Of a stretch of DNA of 32,664 bases, positions 4,679-18,671 are shown piece after piece. Origin of the DNA: Syntrophaceae bacterium (GTDB lineage Bacteria; Desulfobacterota; Syntrophia; Syntrophales; UBA2185); assembly GCA_003508565.1 (NCBI GenBank), contig DNUI01000085.1, positions 1 to 32,664 of the forward strand, given 5' to 3'. Numbering within the stretch: the first letter of the stretch is position 1; every line of letters begins with the position of its first letter. The notes beneath the pieces were generated by a model. It was given only the letters and a program-made list of their open reading frames with translations, was not told the DNA's origin and searched no databases. A program made the translations under genes and the position numbers.

Positions 4679-6000
4679 TCTCCCTTGTTTTTTTCCAGAA
4701 TGCCTACGGTGCGGTTGGTTATTTTGAAGTATCTTGCCGCTATGGTCTTGATATCCGTTGCGTTTACCTTTCTGTACGCTTCCGGGGCCGCGAAGAGCTT
4801 TTGATAACCGCCGAAAAAGATCTCATAGGTCCCAATCAGATCGGCTTTGTCGCTCATCGTCTCCAGGGAACGGTAGAAGGAAGAGACCACGTTGTTTTGG
4901 GCTTTCCGGAGCTCTTTTTCCGTCACGCCTTGTGCGACGACGTTATCGATTTCCCGGAGAATCGCCGTTTCCAGAGTATTCACGTTCACGCCGTCTGTGC
5001 AGATGGCGTAAATATAGAATAATGTCGCATCCAGTGCATTGGGCATGTAGGTTGATACTTCCGTCGCCAGCGGTTTATCGCTGATAAGTGCGCGGTAAAG
5101 ACGTGAAGATTTACCTTGGGAGAGAATGGCACTCAAGAGATCGAGGGCGTAATAATCGGTGGTTCCGGTCTCCGGCACATGGTAGGCAATCAGGATATGG
5201 GGAGAAGAGACGTCTTTATGGACAATGAGACGCTTTTCACCCCGTTGTTCCGGTTCCCGGGTGTACACGGGGCGGGAGGGCGCCCGGGCGGGAATGGGTT
5301 CCAGGTATTTTTCGGCCAGGGTTTTTACCTGCGCAAGCGTCACGTCACCCACCACGATGGTAATCGCGTTATTCGGTGCGTAGTACCGATCAAAATATTC
5401 CTTGATATCGCTCCGCCGCCAATTACGGATGTCCGATTCATAGCCGATGATCGGCCAGCGATAGGGGTGCGCCTGATAGGCAACGGATCTGAGCTGATCC
5501 TCTAAAAGCTCGTAATCGCTGTTTTCATAACCAGTGGTATATTCCGACAAGACAACGCCTCTTTCGCTTTCTACTATTTTCTCATCGAGGGCGAGGCTTC
5601 CCATCCTGTCTGCTTCCATTTCGAAGATCAAGTCCAGGGCGGATTTTGGGACCCAATCCTTGTAGGCAGTGATATCCTCCGTTGTGTAGGCGTTGCTGGA
5701 ACCCCCGGCGTTTTCCAGTACCCGGTCGAACATCTTCGGACCGTACGTCTTTGCGCCGTTGAACATCATGTGTTCGAGAAAGTGGGATAACCCGGTAATC
5801 CCCGGATATTCATTCCGGGAGCCGACCTTGAAGAAGATTTGCAGCGTCACATTGGGAATCCCGTGATCCTCCAGCACCAGAACTTTCATCCCGTTTTTCA
5901 GGGTGAACGTATGCACGTCTTCAACCGCAGGCATGGCGCAAAGAGGGGAAACCCCCGCCAGTAACAACATGGCCAATAATATTAAAATGATACGATTCAT
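4675..6000 (-). CDS. M16 family zinc peptidase (catalytic subunit)
   Basis: Inverted zinc motif HFLEH within GLSHFLEHMMFNG, with a downstream Glu in NAYTTEDITAY. Signal peptide present. The track start 6003 is TTG; ATG 6000 has GGGAGAG upstream. Confidence 0.9.
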   Translation of the reverse strand: MNRIILILLAMLLLAGVSPLCAMPAVEDVHTFTLKNGMKVLVLEDHGIPNVTLQIFFKVGSRNEYPGITGLSHFLEHMMFNGAKTYGPKMFDRVLENAGGSSNAYTTEDITAYKDWVPKSALDLIFEMEADRMGSLALDEKIVESERGVVLSEYTTGYENSDYELLEDQLRSVAYQAHPYRWPIIGYESDIRNWRRSDIKEYFDRYYAPNNAITIVVGDVTLAQVKTLAEKYLEPIPARAPSRPVYTREPEQRGEKRLIVHKDVSSPHILIAYHVPETGTTDYYALDLLSAILSQGKSSRLYRALISDKPLATEVSTYMPNALDATLFYIYAICTDGVNVNTLETAILREIDNVVAQGVTEKELRKAQNNVVSSFYRSLETMSDKADLIGTYEIFFGGYQKLFAAPEAYRKVNATDIKTIAARYFKITNRTVGILEKNKGE

Positions 6001-6150
6001 CAAACTTCTCTCCCTACCTATCCGATCCCCACCGGCAGGTGATTTTGATGGACGGTTTTAACGTTCAATCAAAACAGTTTTTTCATAACCGGAACAAGGG
6101 ATGCATAACGGTTTGCCTTCTTTCATACGCACATGTCGTATAGCCTTCCC

Positions 6151-7080
6151 TCAATTGCAGTGTTTGCAGTGCTCCATTTCCCCGGCTGCTCCGGGCAGAA
6201 TCTGGAGGGTGGTGTGGTTTATCCCGTACTTGTGAATCAGCATTTCCTGGGCCGAACGGATGACCGCTTCGCTGTCGAAGGATTCCTCCACCATCCGAAG
6301 ATGGGCGGACAAAAGCTTCTGATCGGCGCCGGTCTGCCAGATGTGGAGATCGTTGACCTCCAGCACGTTATCAATTGCCAACAGGTCGTTTCTGACCTGG
6401 ATGAAATCAATGCCCGGTGGAACGGCGTCCAGCAGTGAATTGACGGTCTGCCGGACGATCTTGTAGATTTCCCGGGCGATGAACAGGCTGATGGCGATCG
6501 AAATGAGCGGATCGATGACGTGCCAGCCGAAAAACATGATCAAGAGGGCGCCAACGATGACCCCAAGGGAAAACAGGGCGTCCTGGAGCGAGTGAAGCCA
6601 GGCGCTTCTCATGTTGAAGTTCCGCGCCGAGATTTTCTGCAGCAAAAGGGTGGCGGCCCCGTTTCCAACGAAGGCGATCACGGCCACCCAGAGCATCTCA
6701 TTCCCGGGGATTGCCGGCGGCGCCGTCAGTCTGCCGACTGCCTCCCAGAGGATAAACGCGATCGCAACGGATAGGACGATGCTGTTGACAAAGGCGGCGA
6801 TAAACTCGATTTTGTGGTAACCGTATGTCTTGCTTGCATTGGCGGGCCGGTGGGACACCTTCTCCGCCCAATAGCTGAAGCCCATGGCGGCAATGTCGCT
6901 CAGATTGTGGACGGCGTCCGAGATCAACGCCATACTCTGAATGAGCAGTCCGAAAACCATCTCGAAGGCCACGATCCCGCCGTTGATGACCATGGCGAAA
7001 ACCAGGTTTTTCATCGATGCAGGCGATTTATGAGTATGATTGTGGTTGTGTCCCAAGGTTATGTACCTTTCTGTGCACAT
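6151..7080 (-). CDS. cation diffusion facilitator (CDF) transporter, Zn/Co/Cd type
   Basis: Six predicted TMs. HxxxD pairs sit in TM2 (AVHNLSD) and TM5 (LHSLQD). His-rich N-terminus HNHNHTH and C-terminal HCKHC. Confidence 0.9.
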   Translation of the reverse strand: MCTERYITLGHNHNHTHKSPASMKNLVFAMVINGGIVAFEMVFGLLIQSMALISDAVHNLSDIAAMGFSYWAEKVSHRPANASKTYGYHKIEFIAAFVNSIVLSVAIAFILWEAVGRLTAPPAIPGNEMLWVAVIAFVGNGAATLLLQKISARNFNMRSAWLHSLQDALFSLGVIVGALLIMFFGWHVIDPLISIAISLFIAREIYKIVRQTVNSLLDAVPPGIDFIQVRNDLLAIDNVLEVNDLHIWQTGADQKLLSAHLRMVEESFDSEAVIRSAQEMLIHKYGINHTTLQILPGAAGEMEHCKHCN

Positions 7081-7212
7081 TCTACCGCAAGCCCTTTTGC
7101 AAATTGATGCTTTTATCTATTGTTACTCCTCTGCACAGCAAATATCTCATATACTGACTCGAATCATGGGTTTATATTTCCTTTTATATGCACGCTTAAT
7201 GAGACCGGATCA

Positions 7213-7248
7213 GCGAAAGGGCGATGCCCGAAAGCAGAACCCTTTCGC
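7213..7248 (-). terminator. hairpin downstream of the OB-like gene (weak terminator or alternative-structure element)
   Basis: GCGAAAGGG (7213..7221) pairs with CCCTTTCGC (7240..7248) as a 9-bp stem. An internal CTTTCG can pair alternatively with CGAAAG. There is no clear U-tract, so confidence is low. Confidence 0.3.
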
Positions 7249-7258
7249 CGGAATACGA

Positions 7259-7723
7259 TTATCTTCTCCAGCCCCAGCCGGCCCAGACGGGAACGCCGGA
7301 GGCGTCTCTGAGGACAAGAACATTATCGCCCTTTTTCACCTCAGCAGCAAGCACGACTGGTTTGCCCGCAATGGTCGTGCGAGCTCCCTTGATTTCAACT
7401 TTGTCGCCCTTGCCAATTTTCGTATCGAGACGTTCCAGGTACCAGCTCGGTCCGAGGTGGACGGTGACCGTTTCCTTCTCCGTTTTGACCACGAGGGCAA
7501 TCCCCTGATTCATCCGCTTCATGGGAACGGTCTGTTCCAGTCCGATCACTTCACCTGAAAAAGTTTCGAGATTGGCAGGGTTATACATCCCCTGGTAAGG
7601 GGTACCCATGCCCCAGCCGCCGCTTCCTCGCCCTCCCCACTTTCCGGGCCCTGCAAGAGCCAAAGAAGCGGTTAAAAGAAACATCATAACGATCATTAAA
7701 CCAGCAATCCTTTTTGTTTTCAT
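7259..7723 (-). CDS. exported Gly/Trp/Met-rich OB-fold-like protein; paralogue of 2625..3149
   Basis: Signal peptide MKTKRIAGLMIVMMFLLTASLALA, followed by GGRGSGGWGMGTPYQGMY. The core is shared with 2625..3149. C-terminus is WAGWGWRR. Good RBS GAGGAAAGGA. Confidence 0.7.
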   Translation of the reverse strand: MKTKRIAGLMIVMMFLLTASLALAGPGKWGGRGSGGWGMGTPYQGMYNPANLETFSGEVIGLEQTVPMKRMNQGIALVVKTEKETVTVHLGPSWYLERLDTKIGKGDKVEIKGARTTIAGKPVVLAAEVKKGDNVLVLRDASGVPVWAGWGWRR

Positions 7724-7776
7724 AGATCTTTTCCTTTCCTCTTTTTGTTGAAGATTATGTTGTCCTTAATTGTTGA

Positions 7777-8259
7777 TTAATAACCTCTCATGCCCATGCC
7801 GCCATGGCCTCTCATCTCCTTGCCGTAACCATAGCTCCGGCCCGGTCTGTATGCATTTATTTGCGCCTGTGCCTGCTGCTCCGGGGTCAGAACCTTCGTG
7901 GATTCCAGACGAAAAGTCGTTCCCTTTTCATACAGTTTGTCCCTTAAGGTCTGCAGCTCCTTCTGCACCGCCAGGATCTTCTTTTGATCAGGTGTCCGCT
8001 CCAGCCACAGGAGCCTCATTTCGCCCCTCTTGCTGTACATCTGATCTTGGAGGGGTTTAATGTCGCGCAGATGAGCCTCCCGCAACGTGTTCAGTTTCGT
8101 GACCTGTTCCGCATTCAAATTCAAACCGGGTGCGGTTGTAAGGTCATAATACCCCCCACCGGAATGTCCGCCCCCCCAGCCTCTACGGGCTTCTGCGGGG
8201 GACATTGCCAAGCTTGCCGCCAGGGCAATCACCGCCATTACTGTAATCATTTTTTTCAT
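7777..8259 (-). CDS. CpxP/Spy/ZraP-family periplasmic chaperone / metal-stress protein
   Basis: Signal peptide present. Two LTxxQ-type motifs (LNAEQVTKL, LTPEQQAQAQ) lie in a helical core. Gly/His/Met-rich ends are GWGGGHSGGGYY and GHGGMGMRGY. Confidence 0.8.
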   Translation of the reverse strand: MKKMITVMAVIALAASLAMSPAEARRGWGGGHSGGGYYDLTTAPGLNLNAEQVTKLNTLREAHLRDIKPLQDQMYSKRGEMRLLWLERTPDQKKILAVQKELQTLRDKLYEKGTTFRLESTKVLTPEQQAQAQINAYRPGRSYGYGKEMRGHGGMGMRGY

Positions 8260-8300
8260 TGTTCATGTCCCCTTTCACATAAATTGTTTATTAGCTATAC

Positions 8301-8316
8301 AGCAAGAGACATACCA
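8301..8316 (-). promoter_or_regulatory. sigma-54 (-24/-12) promoter for the ZraP-like gene
   Basis: The minus strand reads TTGGTATGTCTCTTGCTGT. GG and GC are spaced exactly as in the TGGCACG-N4-TTGCW consensus. It lies about 42 nt upstream of ATG 8259. Confidence 0.7.
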
Positions 8317-8400
8317 ATGATGATTAATTTCTATAAGCCATTTATATTATTAAGATATATGAATGTTGATGATAACTATTAAATTTGAATTGAATTACTA

Positions 8401-8453
8401 TGTGGATATATAGTATCCAATTGAAGGTATCCACATGGCTTAAAAGTATCCAC
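8401..8453. promoter_or_regulatory. cluster of GTATCCA(C) repeats, probable enhancer (UAS) for the 8301 sigma-54 promoter
   Basis: TGTGGATA (8401) and TATCCACA (8428) form an inverted repeat. Direct copies GTATCCA occur at 8413 and 8446. The cluster is 85-150 bp upstream of the -24/-12 element in an AT-rich spacer. Confidence 0.5.
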
Positions 8454-8573
8454 CCCATCATCATAATTGTTGGTGGTGGCAAAACGCTATGAATAAATAT
8501 GGAAAATATTTTTTGTGTTGTGAAGTCAGTTTTTAGAGATGAGATTGAACGTTTCCATGCCTTTTTCGTGGGT

Positions 8574-8715
8574 TCATGTCGTTGATGAAGTCTTTTGCCC
8601 TGTCCCCTCTCAGATACTCAGCCAGCCTGGAAAGTTCCTCTACAAGGTATTTTGACCGCTATTCGACTCATGTGAGAAATGTTCCGTCAATCCGACTCCG
8701 GTCATAATGCGGAGT
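8574..8715 (-). pseudogene. decayed 3' fragment of a rhodanese gene (copy of 10812..10950)
   Basis: About 140 nt align by eye at roughly 75% identity to the 3' end of the rhodanese gene. In that frame it reads HYDRSRIDGTFLT*VE*RSKYLVEELSRLAEYLRGDRAKDFINDM, with two in-frame stops and no 5' part. Confidence 0.7.
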
Positions 8716-8747
8716 TTAATCATGATAGGCCCAGCGTGATTGGATTA

Positions 8748-9131
8748 TCAATTCCGTCCAGCGGATTTATCCTCGATGCGCCGTTTGATGTCTTGTTTTA
8801 TCCTTACCTTCTCTGCTTCTTCGTAGGTCAGTTCGGAGGATTTCTTCACACCGTAATCCTCCGCCATTTCCACTCGGATATCAGGTTTCCGGCCCGTGTG
8901 CTCCTCCACGATCTTTGTGCAGCACATTACCGGGCAGCCCTCGATGATTACAAAGATCTCTGCATTTTTAACCTTGTTGATGCCGGTTTCCTTGTTGATG
9001 GCTACCGCAGGCAGGCAAAGCAGGTGAAAGTCTTCATTTTCCTTCACCAGTTCAGTGGTTATCGCTCCGGCCAGTTGTCCTGTGTTGGCTGCACCATAGC
9101 AGGTGGTCATCACAATTTTGAATTTTGACAT
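8748..9131 (-). CDS. DGC-domain (putative zinc-binding, Cys-rich) protein
   Basis: 127 aa with CYGAANTGQLAG near the N-terminus, LCLPAVA, and IIEGCPVMCC in place of the family DGC motif. RBS ACAGGAG. Confidence 0.7.
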   Translation of the reverse strand: MSKFKIVMTTCYGAANTGQLAGAITTELVKENEDFHLLCLPAVAINKETGINKVKNAEIFVIIEGCPVMCCTKIVEEHTGRKPDIRVEMAEDYGVKKSSELTYEEAEKVRIKQDIKRRIEDKSAGRN

Positions 9132-9311
9132 TATTTTGCTCCTGTCATGTCATGAAATTGATCTGATCGCTTCAAACAAATATTTTCTTTTATGTGCCGT
9201 CATTCATACTTTGGAAGTTCTACACAAACTGCACTGTACACATAGATAGGGAAAACAGCACCACCACAGAAGCCAAGATGCACCGATTTAAGTTTCATAT
9301 TCCTTCCATAT

Positions 9312-9917
9312 TTACTGCTGCTGCAGTTTCTGGAGGGCGTTGATAATGTCCTCACCCCCGACAAACATTTCCATATTGTCGCCCCTCACGATCACGCAGC
9401 TTGGCGTTGCATTGACTTTATCGTACTGGAGTAAGGAGTTGAACCATTCAAAGGTTGACTTAGGATCGAAGGCGGTAAAGGGTATTTTTTTGTTCCTGAA
9501 AAGATCCTCTATTCTCTCCGCCGTTGTGATATGCTTGTTATCGGTTGCCTCAAAAAGGGTGTTCCTTACCATCATGGCATGCTCGAAGTCATTTTTCGCT
9601 TGTATAGCATACAGAAAGTATCTAGCGTACAGGCCGCTATAGCGGTAGAAGGGGGTGTCCACCATGGTCAAGGTGATGATGTTTCTCTTGACTAGATCCT
9701 TCAACACCGGTTCAACGGCAGGTTTCATCCCCCTGCAGGGAGGGCAGAAAAAATCCGTATACATGCGCACTTGGACCGCTCCAGAACCATATGTAGGAAA
9801 TGAAACATTCTGAGCCTTTACGTCTCCATGGGATACAAAGAATAAAGCGATTGTTGTGAAGAACAATGTCAATAAGGGAACTAATGTACATTTCATGCTG
9901 TTTTTACCGATTTTCAT
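9312..9917 (-). CDS. exported DsbA-like thiol:disulfide oxidoreductase (CPPC), paralogue 1
   Basis: Signal/anchor present. Active site is DFFCPPC. It shares the signature D-x-P-F/I-x4-L-YA-R/K-Y-F/Y-LYA with 10134..10763 and with the C-terminal domain of 11333..12364. The track start is TTG 9923; ATG 9917 is preferred. Confidence 0.8.
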   Translation of the reverse strand: MKIGKNSMKCTLVPLLTLFFTTIALFFVSHGDVKAQNVSFPTYGSGAVQVRMYTDFFCPPCRGMKPAVEPVLKDLVKRNIITLTMVDTPFYRYSGLYARYFLYAIQAKNDFEHAMMVRNTLFEATDNKHITTAERIEDLFRNKKIPFTAFDPKSTFEWFNSLLQYDKVNATPSCVIVRGDNMEMFVGGEDIINALQKLQQQ

Positions 9918-9935
9918 TTTCAATCTATCCTTTCT

Positions 9936-10121
9936 TCATTTGTTACCTATGCAGTCCTTCTTCCATAGACAGTCGTCGTCATTACATGTATCTTTCGTGC
10001 GAAAACACGGCGAATATCCTTCAGCTCTCTGAATATCACGAATAATGTCCTGTTTGGTGCGACCTTTTCGGGCGTCAACACCCCATCCTTCGGCGATTTT
10101 CCGAATCTCTTCCAGTTTCAT
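9936..10121 (-). CDS. 61-aa Rho_N/SAP-like helical protein with C-terminal 4-Cys motif
   Basis: Strong RBS AAGGAGGA 7 nt upstream of the ATG. The N-terminus LEEIRKIAEGWGV..KQDIIRDIQ resembles the Rho_N/SAP fold. The C-terminus reads CFRTKDTCNDDDCLWKKDC (C-x7-C-x4-C-x6-C). Confidence 0.7.
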   Translation of the reverse strand: MKLEEIRKIAEGWGVDARKGRTKQDIIRDIQRAEGYSPCFRTKDTCNDDDCLWKKDCIGNK

Positions 10122-10133
10122 TGATCATCCTCC

Positions 10134-10763
10134 TTACTTTTTCGGGTGTCCAAGCGCGGTGCGCAGTTCGGACACCCCCTTCTTGATGTTCTTATCTCCC
10201 GAATATTTCCGGATATCCGTTGAAGAATAGACAAAGACAATGTTCGGCGTCCCTCGCACCTGGTACTTCCTCACGATGTCGTTGTATTGCTTGAAAACAG
10301 GCTTCACATCGTAGGGCTTCAGGGGAACGTTTCTGGCCTTCAAGGCGTTTTCCAATTGCGGCTCCGTGATGGCGCCGATGCGCGACGCCGTATCGAACAA
10401 CACTTTTCTCGCGAGGAGCACGTCTTTATATGATTGAGAAGCATTTGCCGCATACAAAAAGTACCTGGCGTAGAGAGGGGTCAATTTATAAATGGGGAAA
10501 TCCACAAAACTCACCGTGACGCCTCCATCGGCTAACAGTTCGTGGACCTCGTTGTCTAACCAATGTTCCAGTCTCTGGCAGGGCTGGCAGAAATAGTCTG
10601 AAAATATAAGCATCTGGTATGGGCCGGAACCATAGGATGGAACGAGTGCGTTTTCAGCGCTGTGCGCCGTCATCATCGATCCTGTGAATGTGAGCGTTAT
10701 GCAAAGGCACCCAAGAAACGCTACAACCGGTAGATACAACTTTTGCAACTTTAACATAGGCAA
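10134..10763 (-). CDS. exported DsbA-like thiol:disulfide oxidoreductase (CQPC), paralogue 2
   Basis: Signal anchor LKLQKLYLPVVAFLGCLCITLTF and active site DYFCQPC, with the same family signature as paralogues 1 and 3. TTG 10763 is 6 nt after GAGG; the alternative start is ATG 10757. Confidence 0.8.
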   Translation of the reverse strand: MPMLKLQKLYLPVVAFLGCLCITLTFTGSMMTAHSAENALVPSYGSGPYQMLIFSDYFCQPCQRLEHWLDNEVHELLADGGVTVSFVDFPIYKLTPLYARYFLYAANASQSYKDVLLARKVLFDTASRIGAITEPQLENALKARNVPLKPYDVKPVFKQYNDIVRKYQVRGTPNIVFVYSSTDIRKYSGDKNIKKGVSELRTALGHPKK

Positions 10764-10799
10764 TTTAAACCTCGATCGCTTGAGAACCTTCTTGTCATC

Positions 10800-11252
10800 T
10801 TATTGTGTCATTTCATGTATGAAGTCTTTAGCCCTGTCCCCTCTCAGATAGTCGGCCAGCCCAAGAAGACCCTCGACAAGGTATTTTGACTGGTAGCCCT
10901 TCAAGGTCAGAAATGTCCGGGCAATCTCGGCCCGGTCATAGTGAGGGCACACCGTGACGATAATCTTAGACCTGTCCAGTTCTTTCAGCCTGTCAGGAAG
11001 CTCATTGAGCGGGATGTGTTTTATAAATCCGAAACTATAGACCTGATGTTCTTCCCGGAAACGAATATCGATGATCTGAACGCTCCCTTGTTTGTAAAGG
11101 TGCAGCATTTCCTGAATGCCGATTTTCATGTTTCTGCGTTCCTGATAGTCAAAAGCTTTAAGATAGTTTTCAAACGAAACGCTTTCCCCTGCGTACACCT
11201 GTGTAGTCATCAACAACAGACACAACAATGCCAGAACTCCGTTTTTCACCAT
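10800..11252 (-). CDS. exported single-domain rhodanese (sulfurtransferase)
   Basis: Signal peptide MVKNGVLALLCLLLMTTQVYAGES and active-site loop VTVCPHYDRAEIA. The track start GTG 11273 reads through the RBS GAGGAGGAAGGA, so ATG 11252 is preferred. Confidence 0.85.
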   Translation of the reverse strand: MVKNGVLALLCLLLMTTQVYAGESVSFENYLKAFDYQERRNMKIGIQEMLHLYKQGSVQIIDIRFREEHQVYSFGFIKHIPLNELPDRLKELDRSKIIVTVCPHYDRAEIARTFLTLKGYQSKYLVEGLLGLADYLRGDRAKDFIHEMTQ

Positions 11253-11332
11253 TATTCCTTCCTCCTCGAACACTCAATGTCTTTCAACAGCGGCAACGCA
11301 CAATGGCGCCTTGGATGCCGCCACACTGGCAA

Positions 11333-12364
11333 TTACTTTTTCCCAGCACCTTTATACATTTTCAACGTTGCCAACCCGTCCAATATCTCGCCAGTTCCAA
11401 TGTATTTTCTTGAATAGGATGGAAAATACCGGATGATACATGTAGGAGTTGCGTCGATTCGATTTTGCTTGATACTATTGTTCAACGTCTGAAAGACCGG
11501 TTTCTCATCATATTCCGTCCAGGTGATCTTCTGTTCTTTCAGATACTTCACGAGAAGCTCTCTTGAGTGAATGTTTTGCTCCTGTGCCGCATGGAAGAGG
11601 TGGCTGCGAATCCGTAGAACCTCCCGTGCATCGGCACCGGCATGGACGGCATAGAGATAATACTTTGCATATAACGGGGTTGCTTTGGAAAAAGGAACAT
11701 CGATGAAGCTTATCTTTACATTGCCGTTGGCAAGCAACTCCTTGACCACTGGTTCAAGCGATGCATCAAGAATCCGGCAGGGTGGACAGAAATAGTCGGA
11801 AAAGAAAAACACCTCGTAAGAACCTTTGCCGAGAGAGGGGGTACGGGAGCCCTCTTGCCCGTACGCGGGTGTAACGGAACCGGAAAAGGTGAACAAAATA
11901 CCGAGATATCCCAGAAGGGCGATAATCAGTAGCGGAACCTTTTGTAATTTTAACATAGGCAAATCAACCTCCCCAAGAAAATAGAGCCACATCTTCCGCC
12001 TGTTTTCGCGCCAGGCGGCAGGGGCTTCATAGTTTATGATAAACGCCGCGAGGACCGTGACGGCAAAGGCGAGACAAAACGGACAATATATGTCGTTCTG
12101 CAATTGGAATGTAAATAAATGAATCTCGACGCCGATACCTGCCGCGAGAAGAATGAGGACAAATGGAATTTGCCGGAAGGCGGCAAATGCGATGACCACA
12201 AGCATATATGCAATGCCAACCCATTTCAGATCAATCCCCAAGATATCCCCCTGCAAATAACTGCACGACGTATCGCAGACCTCGTAAAATATCATGAGGG
12301 CGATGCCGGTGACAGCAAGAATAATCGTGATTATGTGTTTGTACTTTTTAACATGATTCATCAT
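11333..12364 (-). CDS. fusion protein: 4-TM VKOR/DsbB-like quinone-linked thiol oxidase domain + TM5 + DsbA-like CPPC domain (paralogue 3)
   Basis: Loop Cys pair C-DTS-C-S after TM1, CPFC at the start of TM4, a basic cytoplasmic linker, then TM5 and a DsbA-like domain with DYFCPPC. This is the topology known for bacterial VKOR-thioredoxin fusions. The VKOR assignment is tentative because loop 1 is short. Confidence 0.7.
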   Translation of the reverse strand: MMNHVKKYKHIITIILAVTGIALMIFYEVCDTSCSYLQGDILGIDLKWVGIAYMLVVIAFAAFRQIPFVLILLAAGIGVEIHLFTFQLQNDIYCPFCLAFAVTVLAAFIINYEAPAAWRENRRKMWLYFLGEVDLPMLKLQKVPLLIIALLGYLGILFTFSGSVTPAYGQEGSRTPSLGKGSYEVFFFSDYFCPPCRILDASLEPVVKELLANGNVKISFIDVPFSKATPLYAKYYLYAVHAGADAREVLRIRSHLFHAAQEQNIHSRELLVKYLKEQKITWTEYDEKPVFQTLNNSIKQNRIDATPTCIIRYFPSYSRKYIGTGEILDGLATLKMYKGAGKK

Positions 12365-12428
12365 TTCACACATATGCCTCCTGTTTCGTTGAGCTCCTTT
12401 TACCCTCTAAACTTTATTGATCCAAATG

Positions 12429-13220
12429 TTAAATGGCAACGCCGAAATAAATAAGAATATATTTCAGGGACACATAAAGAAAGAGCAATCCGAAAAGGAA
12501 CTTCAGTGCGGCGGGTTTGAACTTCGCCACAAGCTTGGCCCCATAGATGGCGCCGATCAGGGCGCCGACGCCAAGGGTTATTGCCACAGGAATGTTCACC
12601 ACGTTCTGATAGAATTTGAAAATAGCGCCGACCAGAGCCATCCAGACGAAAGAGGCCATGGACGTGCCGATGGCGAGCTTCATCGGCGCTTTGAACAGAT
12701 AGATGAACGAGGGCACCAGGGCATACCCGCCGCCGAGGCCCACGATACCAGTGAGAAAACCGATGGCCGATCCCAGGACACCTTTCTGGAAAGACGAACC
12801 CGGCATTCCTCCCCCGGCCGCCGGCTGCGGCAGGGGGTTCTTTCCTAACAGGCCCTTGCCGCCCTCGTAGAGCATCCGCAGGGTGACCAGCAGGAAGGCG
12901 ATGCCGATGATCAGATCGATCAGATCCCCGTAAGGCATGACGTAGGCGAAAACGACTGAGCCGATGATCACTCCCAAAACACCGCTCGCCCCCGTGACAT
13001 AGGCGGTCTGTTTGTCCACGTTGCCCATCCGGATGTGCTGAACAGCTCCGGATCCCGCCGTGAACACGACGGCCGTTAGTGTCGTTCCCACTGCAAAGGC
13101 TGGGTCGAAATCAAAACCGAAACGGATGACCGGCATCATCAGAGCACAGCCGCCCGTTCCTAAAAGTCCACCGACTACTCCGGCAGCAATACCAACCACA
13201 AAATAAATGAGAAAACTCAA
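12429..13220 (-). CDS. TauE/SafE (TSUP) family anion transporter
   Basis: 263 aa and about 8 TMs, with an internal repeat carrying GLLGTGGCALMMP and GIVGLGGGYALVP. TTG start 5 nt after AAGGAGGTG. TTGA overlap with the upstream gene. Confidence 0.9.
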   Translation of the reverse strand: MSFLIYFVVGIAAGVVGGLLGTGGCALMMPVIRFGFDFDPAFAVGTTLTAVVFTAGSGAVQHIRMGNVDKQTAYVTGASGVLGVIIGSVVFAYVMPYGDLIDLIIGIAFLLVTLRMLYEGGKGLLGKNPLPQPAAGGGMPGSSFQKGVLGSAIGFLTGIVGLGGGYALVPSFIYLFKAPMKLAIGTSMASFVWMALVGAIFKFYQNVVNIPVAITLGVGALIGAIYGAKLVAKFKPAALKFLFGLLFLYVSLKYILIYFGVAI

Positions 13221-13540
13221 TGTTCCACCTCCTTCAGGATAATTGATGTATTCAAATGTCTTCCAAGAATCTCCATGGCGTCTCCCATTTGATTATCTGT
13301 AACCCGGACACCCTTTCTTTCAAACCATCGCCTCGTCTCTCCGTCAATGCCGCCGCAAAGGAGAACGTCCGGAGCAAGAGCAAGAAGCTTGGCCTTTCTT
13401 AGGGATGGCGAACGGTCCTCCAAGGGGATCTTCAAAATAGAACATACAGTTCCGCCATCGACCTGGACCAGGAGAAGCTCCGGGGCGGTAAAAAAGTGAG
13501 GGGATACCCGGTTCTCAAAAAGAGGTATGGCCACCTTCAT
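13217..13540 (-). CDS. NifX/NifB-like (dinitrogenase FeMo-cofactor-binding fold) small protein
   Basis: MKVAIPLFENRVSPHF...LLCGGIDGETRRWFERKGVRV matches the Nitro_FeMo-Co domain pattern. ATG 13540 is preceded by AGGAG; the track start 13558 is TTG. Confidence 0.7.
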   Translation of the reverse strand: MKVAIPLFENRVSPHFFTAPELLLVQVDGGTVCSILKIPLEDRSPSLRKAKLLALAPDVLLCGGIDGETRRWFERKGVRVTDNQMGDAMEILGRHLNTSIILKEVEH

Positions 13541-13590
13541 GACATGGTGCTCCTGCAAAGTTTCGGTATAGAATTATTTGAGTATGACAT

Positions 13591-13606
13591 CGCAAGGTGC
13601 GTGCCA
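13591..13606 (-). promoter_or_regulatory. sigma-54 (-24/-12) promoter of the NifX-like/TauE/VKOR-DsbA/rhodanese operon
   Basis: The minus strand reads GTGGCACGCACCTTGCGAT, a near-perfect TGGCACG-N4-TTGC. It lies about 50 nt upstream of ATG 13540. Confidence 0.8.
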
Positions 13607-13689
13607 CGGACACACAAATCTCAGTAAATGTGTTTCCCCTTAAAATCCAGTATCTTATTGTTTGCATCGCATGGCATTTTCTGTTTGTA

Positions 13690-13707
13690 TGTTTCATTTA
13701 TGAAACA
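13690..13707. promoter_or_regulatory. enhancer-binding-protein site 1, perfect palindrome TGTTTCA-N4-TGAAACA
   Basis: TGTTTCATTTATGAAACA, about 90 bp upstream of the -24 element. Confidence 0.6.
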
Positions 13708-13720
13708 GTCCCGGAACTGG

Positions 13721-13738
13721 TGTTTCAGATGTGAAACA
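13721..13738. promoter_or_regulatory. enhancer-binding-protein site 2, perfect palindrome TGTTTCA-N4-TGAAACA
   Basis: TGTTTCAGATGTGAAACA. Its centre is 31 bp (about 3 helical turns) from site 1, the classic tandem bEBP UAS layout. Confidence 0.6.
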
Positions 13739-13830
13739 TGAAGGATAGTCAGGTGTGTCCGATCCATAGGAACCTGAATGACCCCTCTTATTTCTCTTCA
13801 ATCGTGTAAAAGTGGTACTGTCTTTAAATA

Positions 13831-13851
13831 ATAGTTGACATATACAACTAT
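13831..13851. promoter_or_regulatory. inverted repeat ATAGTTG-N7-CAACTAT, candidate MarR operator overlapping a TTGACA -35 box
   Basis: ATAGTTGACATATACAACTAT lies 44 nt upstream of the marR-type ATG. It contains the GTTGAC half-site that recurs at 14381..14408. Confidence 0.45.
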
Positions 13852-13894: not shown

Positions 13895-14347
13895 ATGGAC
13901 GAACAGGCCAGGCAGCTTGCCGGGAGCATTGAAAAAATTATGTATTATTTTGGTACGCAAAGCATGGAGGGAGAGTGTTGTGAAAATATTTCTCTCGGCG
14001 AATTTTTTGCCCTTCGCGCCGTATTGCATCGGAATATCTGTACCATGCAGGATATTGCAAAAAGCGCCGTGGTCACTAAAAGCGGTGCGACCCGCATTGT
14101 CAGTCGTCTGGAGGATAAGGGTCTCGCGCATCGCGAACAGGACCAGAAAGATGGGAGGATCTGTTGTGTGACGTTGACGGATGACGGCAAATCGCTCCTG
14201 AATCGTATCGAGGATCAACTCATGAATAAGATACAGACGATGCTGGTGGCGATGGACCCGGACATGCGCGAAATTCTGATGATTACCCTTCATGCATTTT
14301 GTCAGTCCGCAGACCGACAAATGACAAAATGGGAGAAACTGTCCTAA
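13895..14347 (+). CDS. MarR family transcriptional regulator
   Basis: Winged-helix core ICTMQDIAKSAVVTKSGATRIVSRLEDKGLAHREQDQKDGR. ATG 13895 is 7 nt after AAGGAGGA; the track start TTG 13835 lies in the promoter region. Confidence 0.9.
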   Translation: MDEQARQLAGSIEKIMYYFGTQSMEGECCENISLGEFFALRAVLHRNICTMQDIAKSAVVTKSGATRIVSRLEDKGLAHREQDQKDGRICCVTLTDDGKSLLNRIEDQLMNKIQTMLVAMDPDMREILMITLHAFCQSADRQMTKWEKLS

Positions 14348-14505: not shown

Positions 14506-15618
14506 GTGTTTCAAATGAATAATTTTGTCACTGCCGGTCAATTTTTTATAGTGATTGCCGGGGAACTGATTCTGATTTTTGTGGCCGTTTCCTTTCTCAT
14601 CGGGGTCCTGACGGAATATCTCCCTCCATCCCGCATCAGGGATTTTCTTTCCAACAAGATTACGTCGGTACAATACCTGTTGGGTGCTGGCTTGGGCGCC
14701 CTCACGCCTTTCTGCTCTTGTTCAACCGTTCCTATCACGGCAGGGTTGCTAAAGGGCGGCGTACCATTTGGCCCGATTATGGCGTTCCTTTTTTCTTCAC
14801 CAGTTCTCAATCCTGTAATTATTGCTCTTTTGCTCTCGCTCCTGGGTCTTAAAGTGACGATGGCTTATGTCGTCATTACCTTTTTTGGTTCCATGGTAAC
14901 GGCGGCTCTCCTGTCGAAACTCGGAATGGAAGGACAGGTCAAGCCCTTGATGAATTTTCAGGCAGCCTGTTGCGCGGAAGAGAAAACAAAGCCTGATGTC
15001 GGCCTCGTGATGATCCAGCCGGCTGCCACCGGCTGTTGTTCTAATGAAAGTGCTCAACCTCAGAAGTTGTCTACCTTGCCCACCTATCAAGCTCCGAGCG
15101 CCTGCGGCGCGGGGGGAGCAGAGATGATGCTTGCAAAGCTACCGGCTGAAGCGTCATGCTGCACTGTCAATTTTGATGCGAAAGACTCGGCATATGTACC
15201 TTTTAAAGAAAAGATGAAAAACGCAGCGTCGTCAGCACTTGACACGTTCAAGGGGGTGTTCTGGTATCTGCTTTTGGGAGCAGGGATCGGCGCTTTCATC
15301 TACGGATTTTTCCCGCAGGATCTGTTTGTTAGATTGGCAGGACCGGGCAATTCATGGTCTATTCCTATTGCGGCGGCCATCGGCGTACCAATGTATATCA
15401 GGGCGGAAACGGTGATTCCCATCAGTGCCGCCCTTGTGGGAAAGGGTATGGGGGTGGGAACGGTGCTCGCCCTCATCATCGGCGGTGCCGGGGCAAGTAT
15501 TCCAGAGATGATCATTCTTGGTTCCATGTTCAGGAAGAAACTGATCGCCGCTTTTATACTGAACGTTTTTCTGGTCGCAATTGCGGCAGGGTATATTGTG
15601 GATAAACTGATATATTAA
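14506..15618 (+). CDS. ArsP-family (PF03773-like, 'predicted permease') transporter with Cys-rich central loop
   Basis: Family motif LTPFCSCSTVPITAGLLKGG. The central loop carries three vicinal Cys pairs (ACCAEE, TGCCSNE, ASCCTV) plus ACGAGG. GTG start 7 nt after TAGGAGGA. Confidence 0.85.
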   Translation: MFQMNNFVTAGQFFIVIAGELILIFVAVSFLIGVLTEYLPPSRIRDFLSNKITSVQYLLGAGLGALTPFCSCSTVPITAGLLKGGVPFGPIMAFLFSSPVLNPVIIALLLSLLGLKVTMAYVVITFFGSMVTAALLSKLGMEGQVKPLMNFQAACCAEEKTKPDVGLVMIQPAATGCCSNESAQPQKLSTLPTYQAPSACGAGGAEMMLAKLPAEASCCTVNFDAKDSAYVPFKEKMKNAASSALDTFKGVFWYLLLGAGIGAFIYGFFPQDLFVRLAGPGNSWSIPIAAAIGVPMYIRAETVIPISAALVGKGMGVGTVLALIIGGAGASIPEMIILGSMFRKKLIAAFILNVFLVAIAAGYIVDKLIY

Positions 15619-15684: not shown

Positions 15685-17070
15685 CTATTGCTTAAGGAGT
15701 TTCCTGCTTTTCCTCCATAGTGTCGTGCGGCTGATGCCGAGCTGACGGGCCGTTTTCATGCGGTGGCCGCCTTGCTCTCTAAGCGCCTCCTGGATAAGCT
15801 TCAGTTCCGAAGACACCAAGGGTGTAGGTGTTGAAGAATTCGTGAAATCATGGTTCGTCTTTTCGAGAAAATCGTAGGGTAGGTGCTTTTCTTCAATCAG
15901 CACCCCCCTGCACAGGACACAGGCATGTTCCAGGATATTTTCCAGTTCCCGGATGTTGCCGGGAAACGAATAATTCATGAGGCGGGCCATTACTTCTGTG
16001 GAAACCCCCGCAATATGTTTGCCTTTGAGCGCTTTCAGGCGAGCGATAAAGTTTTCCGTCAGAAGGGGAATGTCTTCTTTCCGTTCGCAGAGTGGCGGAA
16101 TCTCGATCTTAATAATGTTGAGGCGGTAGTAAAGATCCTCACGGAAAAGGCCGTCCCGGACCATTGCGGTTATATCTCTATGGGTGGCCGCCATGATACG
16201 TACGTCGACCTTTACGGGCTCAACTCCGCCTAATGGAATGAATATTTTCTCCTCCAGAACCCGCAAAAACTTGACCTGGAGAGAGGGAGAGGTATCACCG
16301 ATTTCGTCGAGAAAAAGAGTTCCACCATCAGCCAGAGAGAATCGACCAGGCTTGTTCTTCTTCGCATCCGTAAAGGCCCCCTGGACGTAACCGAACAGTT
16401 CCGATTCCAGAAGGGTGTCAGGAATGGAACCGCAATTGACCTTGATGAAGGGTCTTTCTTTCCGCGGGCTCAGATCATGGACCGCCCGGGCCAAGAGACC
16501 CTTTCCCGAACCGCTGGGCCCCTGGATCAGGAGGGTGCTGTCGCTTTCAGCCACGTCTGGCAGGATGTCAAAAATCTCTTGCATTCGTGGATTTTTGCTG
16601 ATCATGTCCCCCATACTGTAACGGCCCGCGACAGCCTTCCGGAGTGTCTCAATCATCGACAAATCGCGGAAGATCTCGACAGCGCCGACAACATCGCCCC
16701 GATGGTTGCGGATAAGAGCTGTGGTGACATTGACGGCAATCTCCTTTCCCGACTGGTTGATAATAACCGCGGGGTGATTGAACACCGGCTCGCCTGTCCT
16801 CAGAGTTCGCTCGAGGGGACAGTTGCTCTGGCAGGTATTGGAACGGAGAATGTCGAAGCAAAATTGGTTCACTGCTTCTTGAAAAGTGAATCCCGTGATC
16901 TCTTCAGCGGCCCGGTTAAAATATGTGTTGATCCGACGTTGAAGATCCACTGTAAAGACGCCGTCCGTCATGCTCTCCAAAATGGCGCAGCAAGGCAAGC
17001 TATCATCACTGCTTCGGCATGATGAGGTGTTTACAGAACCGGCATCATTTTTACTGCTTTTCCTTTTCAT
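15685..17070 (-). CDS. sigma-54-dependent transcriptional activator (bEBP) with N-terminal PAS sensor and C-terminal Fis-type HTH
   Basis: AAA+ core with Walker A GPSGSGKG, the sigma-54 contact loop GAFTDA and ESELFGY. C-terminal HTH TARQLGISRTTLWRK. There is no receiver domain; the PAS region carries Cys residues. Confidence 0.95.
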   Translation of the reverse strand: MKRKSSKNDAGSVNTSSCRSSDDSLPCCAILESMTDGVFTVDLQRRINTYFNRAAEEITGFTFQEAVNQFCFDILRSNTCQSNCPLERTLRTGEPVFNHPAVIINQSGKEIAVNVTTALIRNHRGDVVGAVEIFRDLSMIETLRKAVAGRYSMGDMISKNPRMQEIFDILPDVAESDSTLLIQGPSGSGKGLLARAVHDLSPRKERPFIKVNCGSIPDTLLESELFGYVQGAFTDAKKNKPGRFSLADGGTLFLDEIGDTSPSLQVKFLRVLEEKIFIPLGGVEPVKVDVRIMAATHRDITAMVRDGLFREDLYYRLNIIKIEIPPLCERKEDIPLLTENFIARLKALKGKHIAGVSTEVMARLMNYSFPGNIRELENILEHACVLCRGVLIEEKHLPYDFLEKTNHDFTNSSTPTPLVSSELKLIQEALREQGGHRMKTARQLGISRTTLWRKSRKLLKQ

Positions 17071-17951: not shown

Positions 17952-18659
17952 TTAGTTACCCCAAAAAGGATTCCCGATGAAGTAGATACCTAAAACAGCG
18001 ATGAGCGCCCCGGCGCCCTTGCGGAACCACAAACCCGCGCCCTGCCATGTCCGGTTTTCGATCAGTTTTCTCACCATGGCCGTTGAACTGCCCGCAATCA
18101 CGATAGGAAGGCAGTGCCCGAAGGCAAACAGCGTAATGAAAAGGATGCCCAGCCCTACCTTCTCCTGAATTGTAATAATGGCCAGAATGGGCGCGATGAA
18201 ACCGAACGTGCAGGAGCCGGACAGCACACCGTACGACAGGCCCAGTCCAAAGGCGCCCCAGAGCCCCCGCAGGTTAAGACGGTAGAGAAGGCTGCCGGAA
18301 GCGGAACATGCTTCGACCCCCATCATGCCTAATGCGACCCAGAGAAGGATCAGCCCTACCAGTATCTGCCAGTAATTCCCCACGTCGCCCAGCATCCGTC
18401 CCAGAATGACACACACGATGCCGACCAGCGCAATGGTAATAAAAAGTCCAAAGGTAAACGCAACGGAGTAGGCGCTGGCCTGCCGGGGTTCCAGTATCTG
18501 TTCCTGTCCACCCACATAGGCGACTATGAGGGGGATGGATGCAAGATGACAGGGACTGAACAGGACGCTGACCACGCCCCACAGAAAACACCCGAGGGCG
18601 GCCAGGATTGCTGCACCCATCATCCATTCGTTGATTGTCAAAAAGAAAGAATCGAACAT
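17952..18659 (-). CDS. ccdA: CcdA/DsbD-type transmembrane thiol:disulfide electron transporter
   Basis: Six TMs with the two conserved Cys contexts FSPCHLASIPL and SGSCTFGFIAPIL. ATG 18659 is preceded by GAGGGTGG; the track start is GTG 18668. Confidence 0.85.
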   Translation of the reverse strand: MFDSFFLTINEWMMGAAILAALGCFLWGVVSVLFSPCHLASIPLIVAYVGGQEQILEPRQASAYSVAFTFGLFITIALVGIVCVILGRMLGDVGNYWQILVGLILLWVALGMMGVEACSASGSLLYRLNLRGLWGAFGLGLSYGVLSGSCTFGFIAPILAIITIQEKVGLGILFITLFAFGHCLPIVIAGSSTAMVRKLIENRTWQGAGLWFRKGAGALIAVLGIYFIGNPFWGN

Positions 18660-18671
18660 TATATCCACCCT

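Follow-up and report, generated by a model that had tools for sequence, protein, structure and literature searches.

To our knowledge, OrpR is the only described sigma-54 activator of the bEBP class whose redox sensing relies on an Fe-S cluster in its PAS domain. The known system consists of the sigma-54 promoters of orp1 and orp2 in Desulfovibrio vulgaris Hildenborough (PMC8359166; PMC3897727; Fievet 2011 as cited there). OrpR (DVU2106) has a PAS-AAA+-HTH architecture, and its residues C52, C61 and C65 (C-x8-C-x3-C, with Asp/Glu at position 54) hold a redox-sensitive [4Fe-4S] cluster (PMC8359166, Fievet et al. 2021). The protein is required for anaerobic transcription of orp, is switched off as the redox potential rises and binds DNA whatever the redox state; in ChIP-seq its targets are the two orp operons only (PMC8359166). 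Deleting the PAS domain made the D. vulgaris protein constitutive. DVU2106 also appears in a table of GAFTDA proteins (Kazakov et al. 2015, PMC4641369).

The window considered here, the whole stretch of 32,664 nt that was analysed, belongs to a metagenome-assembled genome (MAG) of an uncultured organism, which is 82% complete and comprises 2.25 Mb in 298 contigs. We consider it highly likely that one intergenic region of this window, together with the surrounding genes, forms an OrpR-type sigma-54 switch, in which a local OrpR ortholog would act through two dyads on a promoter at 13606-13591. The elements of the proposed switch are as follows.

13591..13606, minus strand: candidate sigma-54 (-24/-12) promoter TGGCACGCACCTTGCG, put forward on the exact motif, its conservation and rpoN in the genome
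13690..13707: promoter-proximal UAS dyad TGTTTCATTTATGAAACA (TGTTTCA-TTTA-TGAAACA), centred at about -118.5, predicted OrpR dimer site
13721..13738: distal UAS dyad TGTTTCAGATGTGAAACA (TGTTTCA-GATG-TGAAACA), centred at about -149.5, predicted OrpR dimer site
13217..13540, minus strand: first operon gene, a small Nitro_FeMo-Co ("Di-Nase") protein of 107 aa that starts MKVAIPLFENRVSPHF
12429-13220, minus strand: TauE/TSUP gene (Pfam)
11333-12373, minus strand: VKOR-DsbA-like fusion protein (Pfam)
10800-11273, minus strand: rhodanese (Pfam)
10134-10763, minus strand: thioredoxin/DsbA-like protein (Pfam)
9312-9923, minus strand: thioredoxin/DsbA-like protein (Pfam)
8748-9131, minus strand: DGC-domain gene (Pfam), preceded by a 180-nt gap
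13895..14347, plus strand: divergent MarR-family gene (Pfam, NCBIfam), which has its intergenic region in common with the sigma-54 operon
14506-15618, plus strand: ArsP-family permease
15685..17070, minus strand: orpR ortholog, a PAS-AAA+-HTH_8 sigma-54 activator and predicted dyad binder (Pfam, signatures, reciprocal best hit, tree)

On the plus strand the promoter segment 13591-13606 reads CGCAAGGTGCGTGCCA; its minus-strand reading (13606..13591) is TGGCACGCACCTTGCG, that is, TGGCAC-N5-TTGC in a TGGCAC-N5-TTGCW context with GG-N10-GC spacing, matching 10 of the 11 sigma-54 consensus positions. In a pattern search of the whole window it is the sole TGGCAC-N5-TTGC with zero mismatches. Taking G13604 as -24 and C13592 as -12 places the predicted start near 13580, which leaves a predicted leader of about 40 nt ahead of the first minus-strand gene, whose ATG at 13540 lies behind GGAG. 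The genome encodes rpoN, as a 489-aa frame of contig C150 that matches PF04552 with 219 bits.

Upstream of this element, an initial annotation of the stretch had described two perfect TGTTTCA-N4-TGAAACA palindromes 31 bp apart, and the sequence bears this out. The dyads are centred at 13698.5 and 13729.5, their arms (7+7) are perfect, and the 4-bp spacers are not self-complementary. The dyad edges lie 84-132 bp upstream of the T in TGGCAC, and the spacer between enhancer and promoter measures 83 bp, with 63% A+T. The two dyads are the only matches to the motif in the window at up to two mismatches (shuffled sequences give a mean of 0.20, and 0 of 100 shuffles contain two), and they are also the only perfect copies genome-wide in the 2.25 Mb and 298 contigs. 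The initial annotation expected the motif to define a regulon. Genome scans for TGTTTCA-N4-TGAAACA with up to three mismatches, and for GTTKCA-N3/4-TGMAAC, found no second pair with a properly oriented strong -24/-12 element. A single paired-site target in an 82%-complete MAG means that the motif marks one operon and does not define a regulon.

The activator gene itself was placed correctly from the outset: Pfam confirms the PAS-AAA+-HTH architecture of the bEBP at 15685-17070, with PAS_9 at residues 36-138, Sigma54_activat at 156-323, AAA_lid_14, and HTH_8 at 422-457. Its PAS domain carries FCFDILRSNTCQSNC, within which the Cys triad C-x-D-x6-C-x3-C (C71, C80 and C84) takes the form CFDILRSNTCQSNC, and its AAA+ domain has the GAFTDA loop. 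The triad is present in all 21 aligned family members and GAFTDA in 20 of them; among the 16 full-length bEBPs encoded in the genome, the triad occurs in the 15685-17070 protein only. A reference orp locus was sought through the published OrpR site GGGCGYRTTTTGCGCCC in 400 genomes of the phylum. The locus L082, in a genome of 68% GC and taken as Desulfovibrio-type from the published motif and gene content alone, has GGGCGYRTTTTGCGCCC sites on both sides of its bEBP gene, a -24/-12 element after each site, and Di-Nase, Mrp and MinD-like genes alongside; by these marks it is an orp locus of the published type.

The L082 and window bEBPs are 47-49% identical over their full length and are reciprocal best hits. 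Searched against this genome, the L082 protein matches the window protein best (389 bits, over residues 9-433), while the other bEBPs align with it in the AAA+ domain only, at no more than 265 bits. The window protein, L082 and 19 relatives group together in a maximum-likelihood tree, in a long-stemmed clade that has 100/100 support and leaves out the 15 other bEBPs of the genome. NCBIfam holds no OrpR model, and the window protein matches its generic activator models, all below their cut-offs. Because of the signatures, the reciprocal best match with L082, the 100/100 clade and the unique Cys triad, we call the 15685-17070 gene orpR, which its sequence identifies as the ortholog of the Desulfovibrio gene for OrpR (DVU2106). 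The protein, an "uncharacterised activator" in the initial annotation, can therefore be given a name, that of the D. vulgaris regulator (PMC8359166).

We compared 45 full-length OrpR-family loci from Thermodesulfobacteriota, Ignavibacteria, Acidobacteriota, Spirochaetota and others. Within 450 bp of the bEBP gene, GTTKCA-N4-TGMAAC sites reach 4.4 times the density seen in the rest of the same loci (Poisson P ~1e-12). Site pairs 17-80 bp apart are spaced 31 or 32 bp in 12 of 19 cases, so the three-turn phasing noticed earlier in the window recurs as a family trait. At least 10 loci display a -24/-12 element 70-115 bp downstream of the sites, followed by a small Di-Nase gene in first position with the signature MK[IV]AIPLF..R[IV]SP[RH]F. 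Most of these Di-Nase copies score at or close to the Pfam threshold for Nitro_FeMo-Co, and the same holds for the first gene behind orpR in L082. In L082 the divergent flank of orpR also has the published motif twice in tandem (10325-10369), as GGGCGCGAAATGCGCCC and GGGCGCGAAACACGCCC at a distance of 28 bp, followed by a CGGCACGCAAGATGC element and a DUF5320-like first gene; paired sites thus occur in the GGGCGC class too.

TTTCA half-sites are confined to the subclade of the window protein (WIN) and those of L001, L002 and L003, which has 100/100 support; other lineages have TTGCA or mixed GTTTCA-N4-TGCAAC sites. The recognition helix reads STLWRK in the window protein, as against DTLRRI in the Desulfovibrio-type OrpR. 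A residue-to-base specificity code was considered and rejected, since the TTTCA and TTGCA classes share one helix, S/T-T-L-W-R-K, and there are hybrid sites of the form GTTTCA-N4-TGCAAC. The G/T position of the half-site is probably degenerate rather than a specificity switch. Just ahead of the helix (x in I-x-[RK]-[ST]-T-L-W-R-K), members of the TTTCA clade carry Ser or Gly, and lineages with TTGCA or mixed sites carry Asp, His or Asn; this residue is a possible specificity determinant, in a sample that is small and confounded by phylogeny.

Which of the activators encoded in this genome would occupy the dyads? Binding by the OrpR ortholog is argued from co-location, because both the DNA word and the recognition helix differ from those of the verified OrpR system. 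With 16 full-length bEBPs in the genome, and with orpR lying 2 kb off and separated from the target operon by marR and the ArsP permease gene, one might suppose that the promoter and enhancer are genuine and that one of the other 15 bEBPs binds the dyads. This alternative has to contend with the linkage of the motif family to OrpR-clade genes across phyla, where the sites often stand right behind the stop codon, and with the TTTCA sub-motif, which tracks the WIN/L001/L002/L003 subclade. We regard it as improbable, and the OrpR ortholog remains the preferred candidate.

Orthologous regions were footprinted in a set of five: the window locus, G408, G116, L003 and L002. G408, from the same family and another genus, has marR, two dyads 30 bp apart, TGGCACACCCCTTGCT, and then Di-Nase (87% identity), TauE, DsbA-like and rhodanese genes, a gene order that also occurs in the window. 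G116, from the same order, has a P5CR-like gene, orpR (79% identity), boxes right after its stop codon, TGGCGCGGAATTTGC, Di-Nase and TauE. L003, from Syntrophorhabdus, has orpR (61% identity), the sites GTTTCA-TAA-TGAAAC and GTTTCA-GTTA-TGAAAA, TGGCACGGGGATTGCT, Di-Nase and TauE. Only GTTTCA..GAAAC, a second GTTTCA, and TGGC.C...TTGC are invariant across the five regions. Both halves of the distal dyad, the left half GTTTCA of the proximal dyad, and the TGGC.C and TTGC blocks of the promoter are thus retained, with diverged flanks and a spacer between enhancer and promoter that varies from ~80 to ~200 bp. A position-flexible enhancer working with a -24/-12 promoter would be expected to leave just such invariant blocks and a variable spacer. 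The initial annotation had proposed a sigma-54 promoter with GG and GC at consensus spacing, served by a palindromic enhancer for the local PAS-bEBP. The reading of the minus-strand element 13606..13591 as a putative sigma-54-dependent promoter is supported by its sequence and by its invariance, and the wider proposal by the footprinting and by the conserved linkage between motif and ortholog.

The initial annotation had also pointed out that the same intergenic region serves a divergent marR-type gene, which indeed starts at 13895 on the plus strand. It could then be argued that the dyads are operators of MarR, or of another non-bEBP factor, and control marR-arsP rather than the sigma-54 operon. 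MarR proteins bind dyads of 16-20 bp, and marR adjoins the intergenic region both here and in G408. The dyads, however, are placed ~100-150 bp ahead of the marR start region, not at a position where repressor operators sit. A separate conserved inverted repeat at 13831-13851, ATAGTTGACATATACAACTAT (ATAGTTG-ACATATA-CAACTAT), overlaps a TTGACA just upstream of marR and is kept at the same place in G408 as GTTGACATAATCAAC (GTTGA-CATAA-TCAAC; L100, ~1940-1975); this repeat, separate from the OrpR dyads, probably serves as operator for MarR. In G116, L003 and L002 the same boxes and -24/-12 element come straight after the stop codon of orpR, and no marR is close by. The persistence of the boxes where marR is absent separates them from marR and makes MarR an unlikely dyad binder; control of marR-arsP through the dyads is, all told, even less probable than binding by another bEBP.

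The least credible alternative, that the -24/-12 match and the dyads are coincidence or relics and that a sigma-70 promoter, so far unrecognised, drives the operon, can appeal to L001 (orpR 81% identity), where one degenerate box with no promoter after it shows that sites can decay, but it is opposed by a joint occurrence of elements far beyond chance, by their invariance in orthologous regions otherwise diverged and variable in length, and, at the sequence level, by the finding of no sigma-70-like -35/-10 pair on the minus strand at 13541-13830, a sigma-70-driven start elsewhere being among the outcomes that the initial annotation had named as fatal to its reading.

How would the OrpR-type switch operate? 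TGGCACGCACCTTGCG (minus strand, 13606-13591) would hold sigma-54 RNA polymerase in a closed complex. The OrpR ortholog, whose gene lies at a distance of 2 kb (15685-17070), would bind both 7-N4-7 dyads as dimers through its C-terminal Fis-type HTH. With the dyads three helical turns apart, the two dimers would lie on one face of the DNA, at about -118 and -149, and we infer a dimer-of-dimers assembly there. The bound dimers would nucleate an AAA+ oligomer, DNA looping would bring this oligomer to the promoter, and ATP hydrolysis, acting through the GAFTDA loop, would open the closed complex. If the ortholog works as OrpR of Desulfovibrio does, a [4Fe-4S] cluster bound by the PAS triad would gate it, and it would be on at low redox potential and off once oxidised, with DNA binding unaffected. 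A transcript starting near 13580 would then encode the Orp7-like Di-Nase, TauE/TSUP, VKOR-DsbA, rhodanese and DsbA-like proteins.

The product of the first gene (13217-13540) scores 25.1 bits against PF02579, 1.2 bits under the cut-off, and matches the MrpORP Di-Nase domain. It has weak positional similarity to the first gene of L082, and a PDB sequence search returned only marginal NifB/NifX-like matches (E >= 0.08). By its position it would be an Orp7-like protein. Strand and spacing suggest that the whole minus-strand run 8748..13540 is co-transcribed, with the membership of the DGC-domain gene uncertain because of the 180-nt gap that precedes it. A ZraP-like gene with a Metal_resist Pfam match is found at 7777-8259 of the window.

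The operon is patchily distributed: of 31 relatives, only 3 carry its Di-Nase gene. In L001, the closest orpR relative, a single degenerate box, GTTTCC-TATC-TGAAAC (9404-9419), lies behind orpR, where there is no -24/-12 element and a convergent gene is present. Together with the count of Di-Nase genes this suggests that the target operon is gained and lost while orpR stays. The Syntrophaceae MAG locus L002 (orpR 75% identical) carries OrpR-type boxes and TGGCGCGGATTTTGCT at 9405-9980; the next gene there is a 111-aa fragment of a starch-synthase (Glyco_transf_5) N-terminus instead of Di-Nase, and this may be a rearranged or decayed target. A near-dyad, TGTTTCAGGGTTGAAACC, is identical in three relatives (L084 1502-1519, G405:C13:2579 and G408:C114:2643), ~95 bp beyond the end of a CcdA-like gene homologous to window 17952-18668; it may belong to the coding part of the gene that follows, or be an additional site.

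A classical orp-type cluster is also present in the genome, on the minus strand of contig C167 (~5288-9500), with a DUF5320-like gene, two Di-Nase genes, two MinD-like genes and one Mrp gene. A Fur-box-like sequence, GATGAAAATGATTATCATTAAC, lies ahead of the cluster. We discarded this cluster as a second OrpR target, as neither OrpR-type dyads nor a -24/-12 element were found upstream of it. The classical orp cluster thus seems, from its upstream sequence, to be uncoupled from OrpR in this organism.

What could be the significance of the arrangement? We hold the chances to be about even that in this Syntrophales lineage OrpR has been rewired from MinD/Mrp genes to a Di-Nase-led, exported disulfide-forming and sulfur-transfer operon, comprising VKOR-DsbA, two DsbA-like proteins, rhodanese and TSUP/TauE. 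If this is true, cytoplasmic redox potential would switch envelope thiol oxidation, and the operators GGGCGC, TTGCA and TTTCA would constitute a natural series for dissecting the DNA specificity of a Fis-type bEBP HTH. The locus offers the OrpR system a different, clean operator in the form of two perfect, phased dyads. It puts a name to the regulator, which becomes testable, and provides a motif by which OrpR targets could be annotated in Syntrophales-type genomes. It also hints that Di-Nase/Orp proteins and OrpR control are tied to sulfur and thiol handling, beyond cell division alone.

Among sigma-54 systems in general, the arrangement recalls E. coli glnAp2, where two strong NtrC dyads are centred near -140 and -108. 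A pair of dyads about three turns apart upstream of a sigma-54 start is the classic geometry for cooperative oligomer assembly, and in both systems the two bEBP dyads lie roughly -120 to -150 from the start. NtrC differs in having a phosphorylated receiver domain in place of an Fe-S PAS domain, in its DNA word and in its unrelated cargo.

A further comparison is with the GTTGCA-N3/4-TGCAAC loci of the OrpR family outside Desulfovibrio (L007, L015, L020, L024, L025, L035, L037, L044 and L047). They have dyads of 16-18 bp in the same register, with one position per half-site differing from the window (K = G or T), pairs 29-32 bp apart, a sigma-54 promoter 70-115 bp downstream and an MK.AIPLF Di-Nase gene first. 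Most of them run on into MinD/Mrp orp genes, whereas the TTTCA loci of the window, G408, G116 and L003 run on into TauE.

With the D. vulgaris system the window has in common the PAS-AAA+-HTH activator with its C-x-(D/E)-x6-C-x3-C triad and GAFTDA loop, palindromic upstream sites before a -24/-12 element, a Di-Nase gene in first place and a very narrow regulon, which resembles the narrow one seen in D. vulgaris by ChIP-seq. The operator words are unrelated, TGTTTCA-N4-TGAAACA in the window and GGGCGYRTTTTGCGCCC in D. vulgaris, and the latter has 0 matches in this genome. D. vulgaris has one site region on each side of orpR, whereas the window has two phased dyads at one promoter, and its orpR is separated from the target by marR-arsP. 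No site overlaps an orpR promoter in the window, so that no autoregulatory loop is evident. The orp promoters of D. vulgaris need IHF, while the window spacer has no good IHF consensus, the best matches to WATCARNNNNTTR in 13600-13700 carrying 2 mismatches. Unlike the classical orp operon, the window operon has no MinD-like or Mrp (Orp3/4/9) genes by Pfam; their place is taken by TauE/TSUP, VKOR-DsbA, rhodanese and DsbA-like genes. The locus reveals no new regulatory principle; by its sequence it is a variant of the known OrpR circuit whose operator word is new and whose cargo, for thiol and sulfur handling, is unusual.
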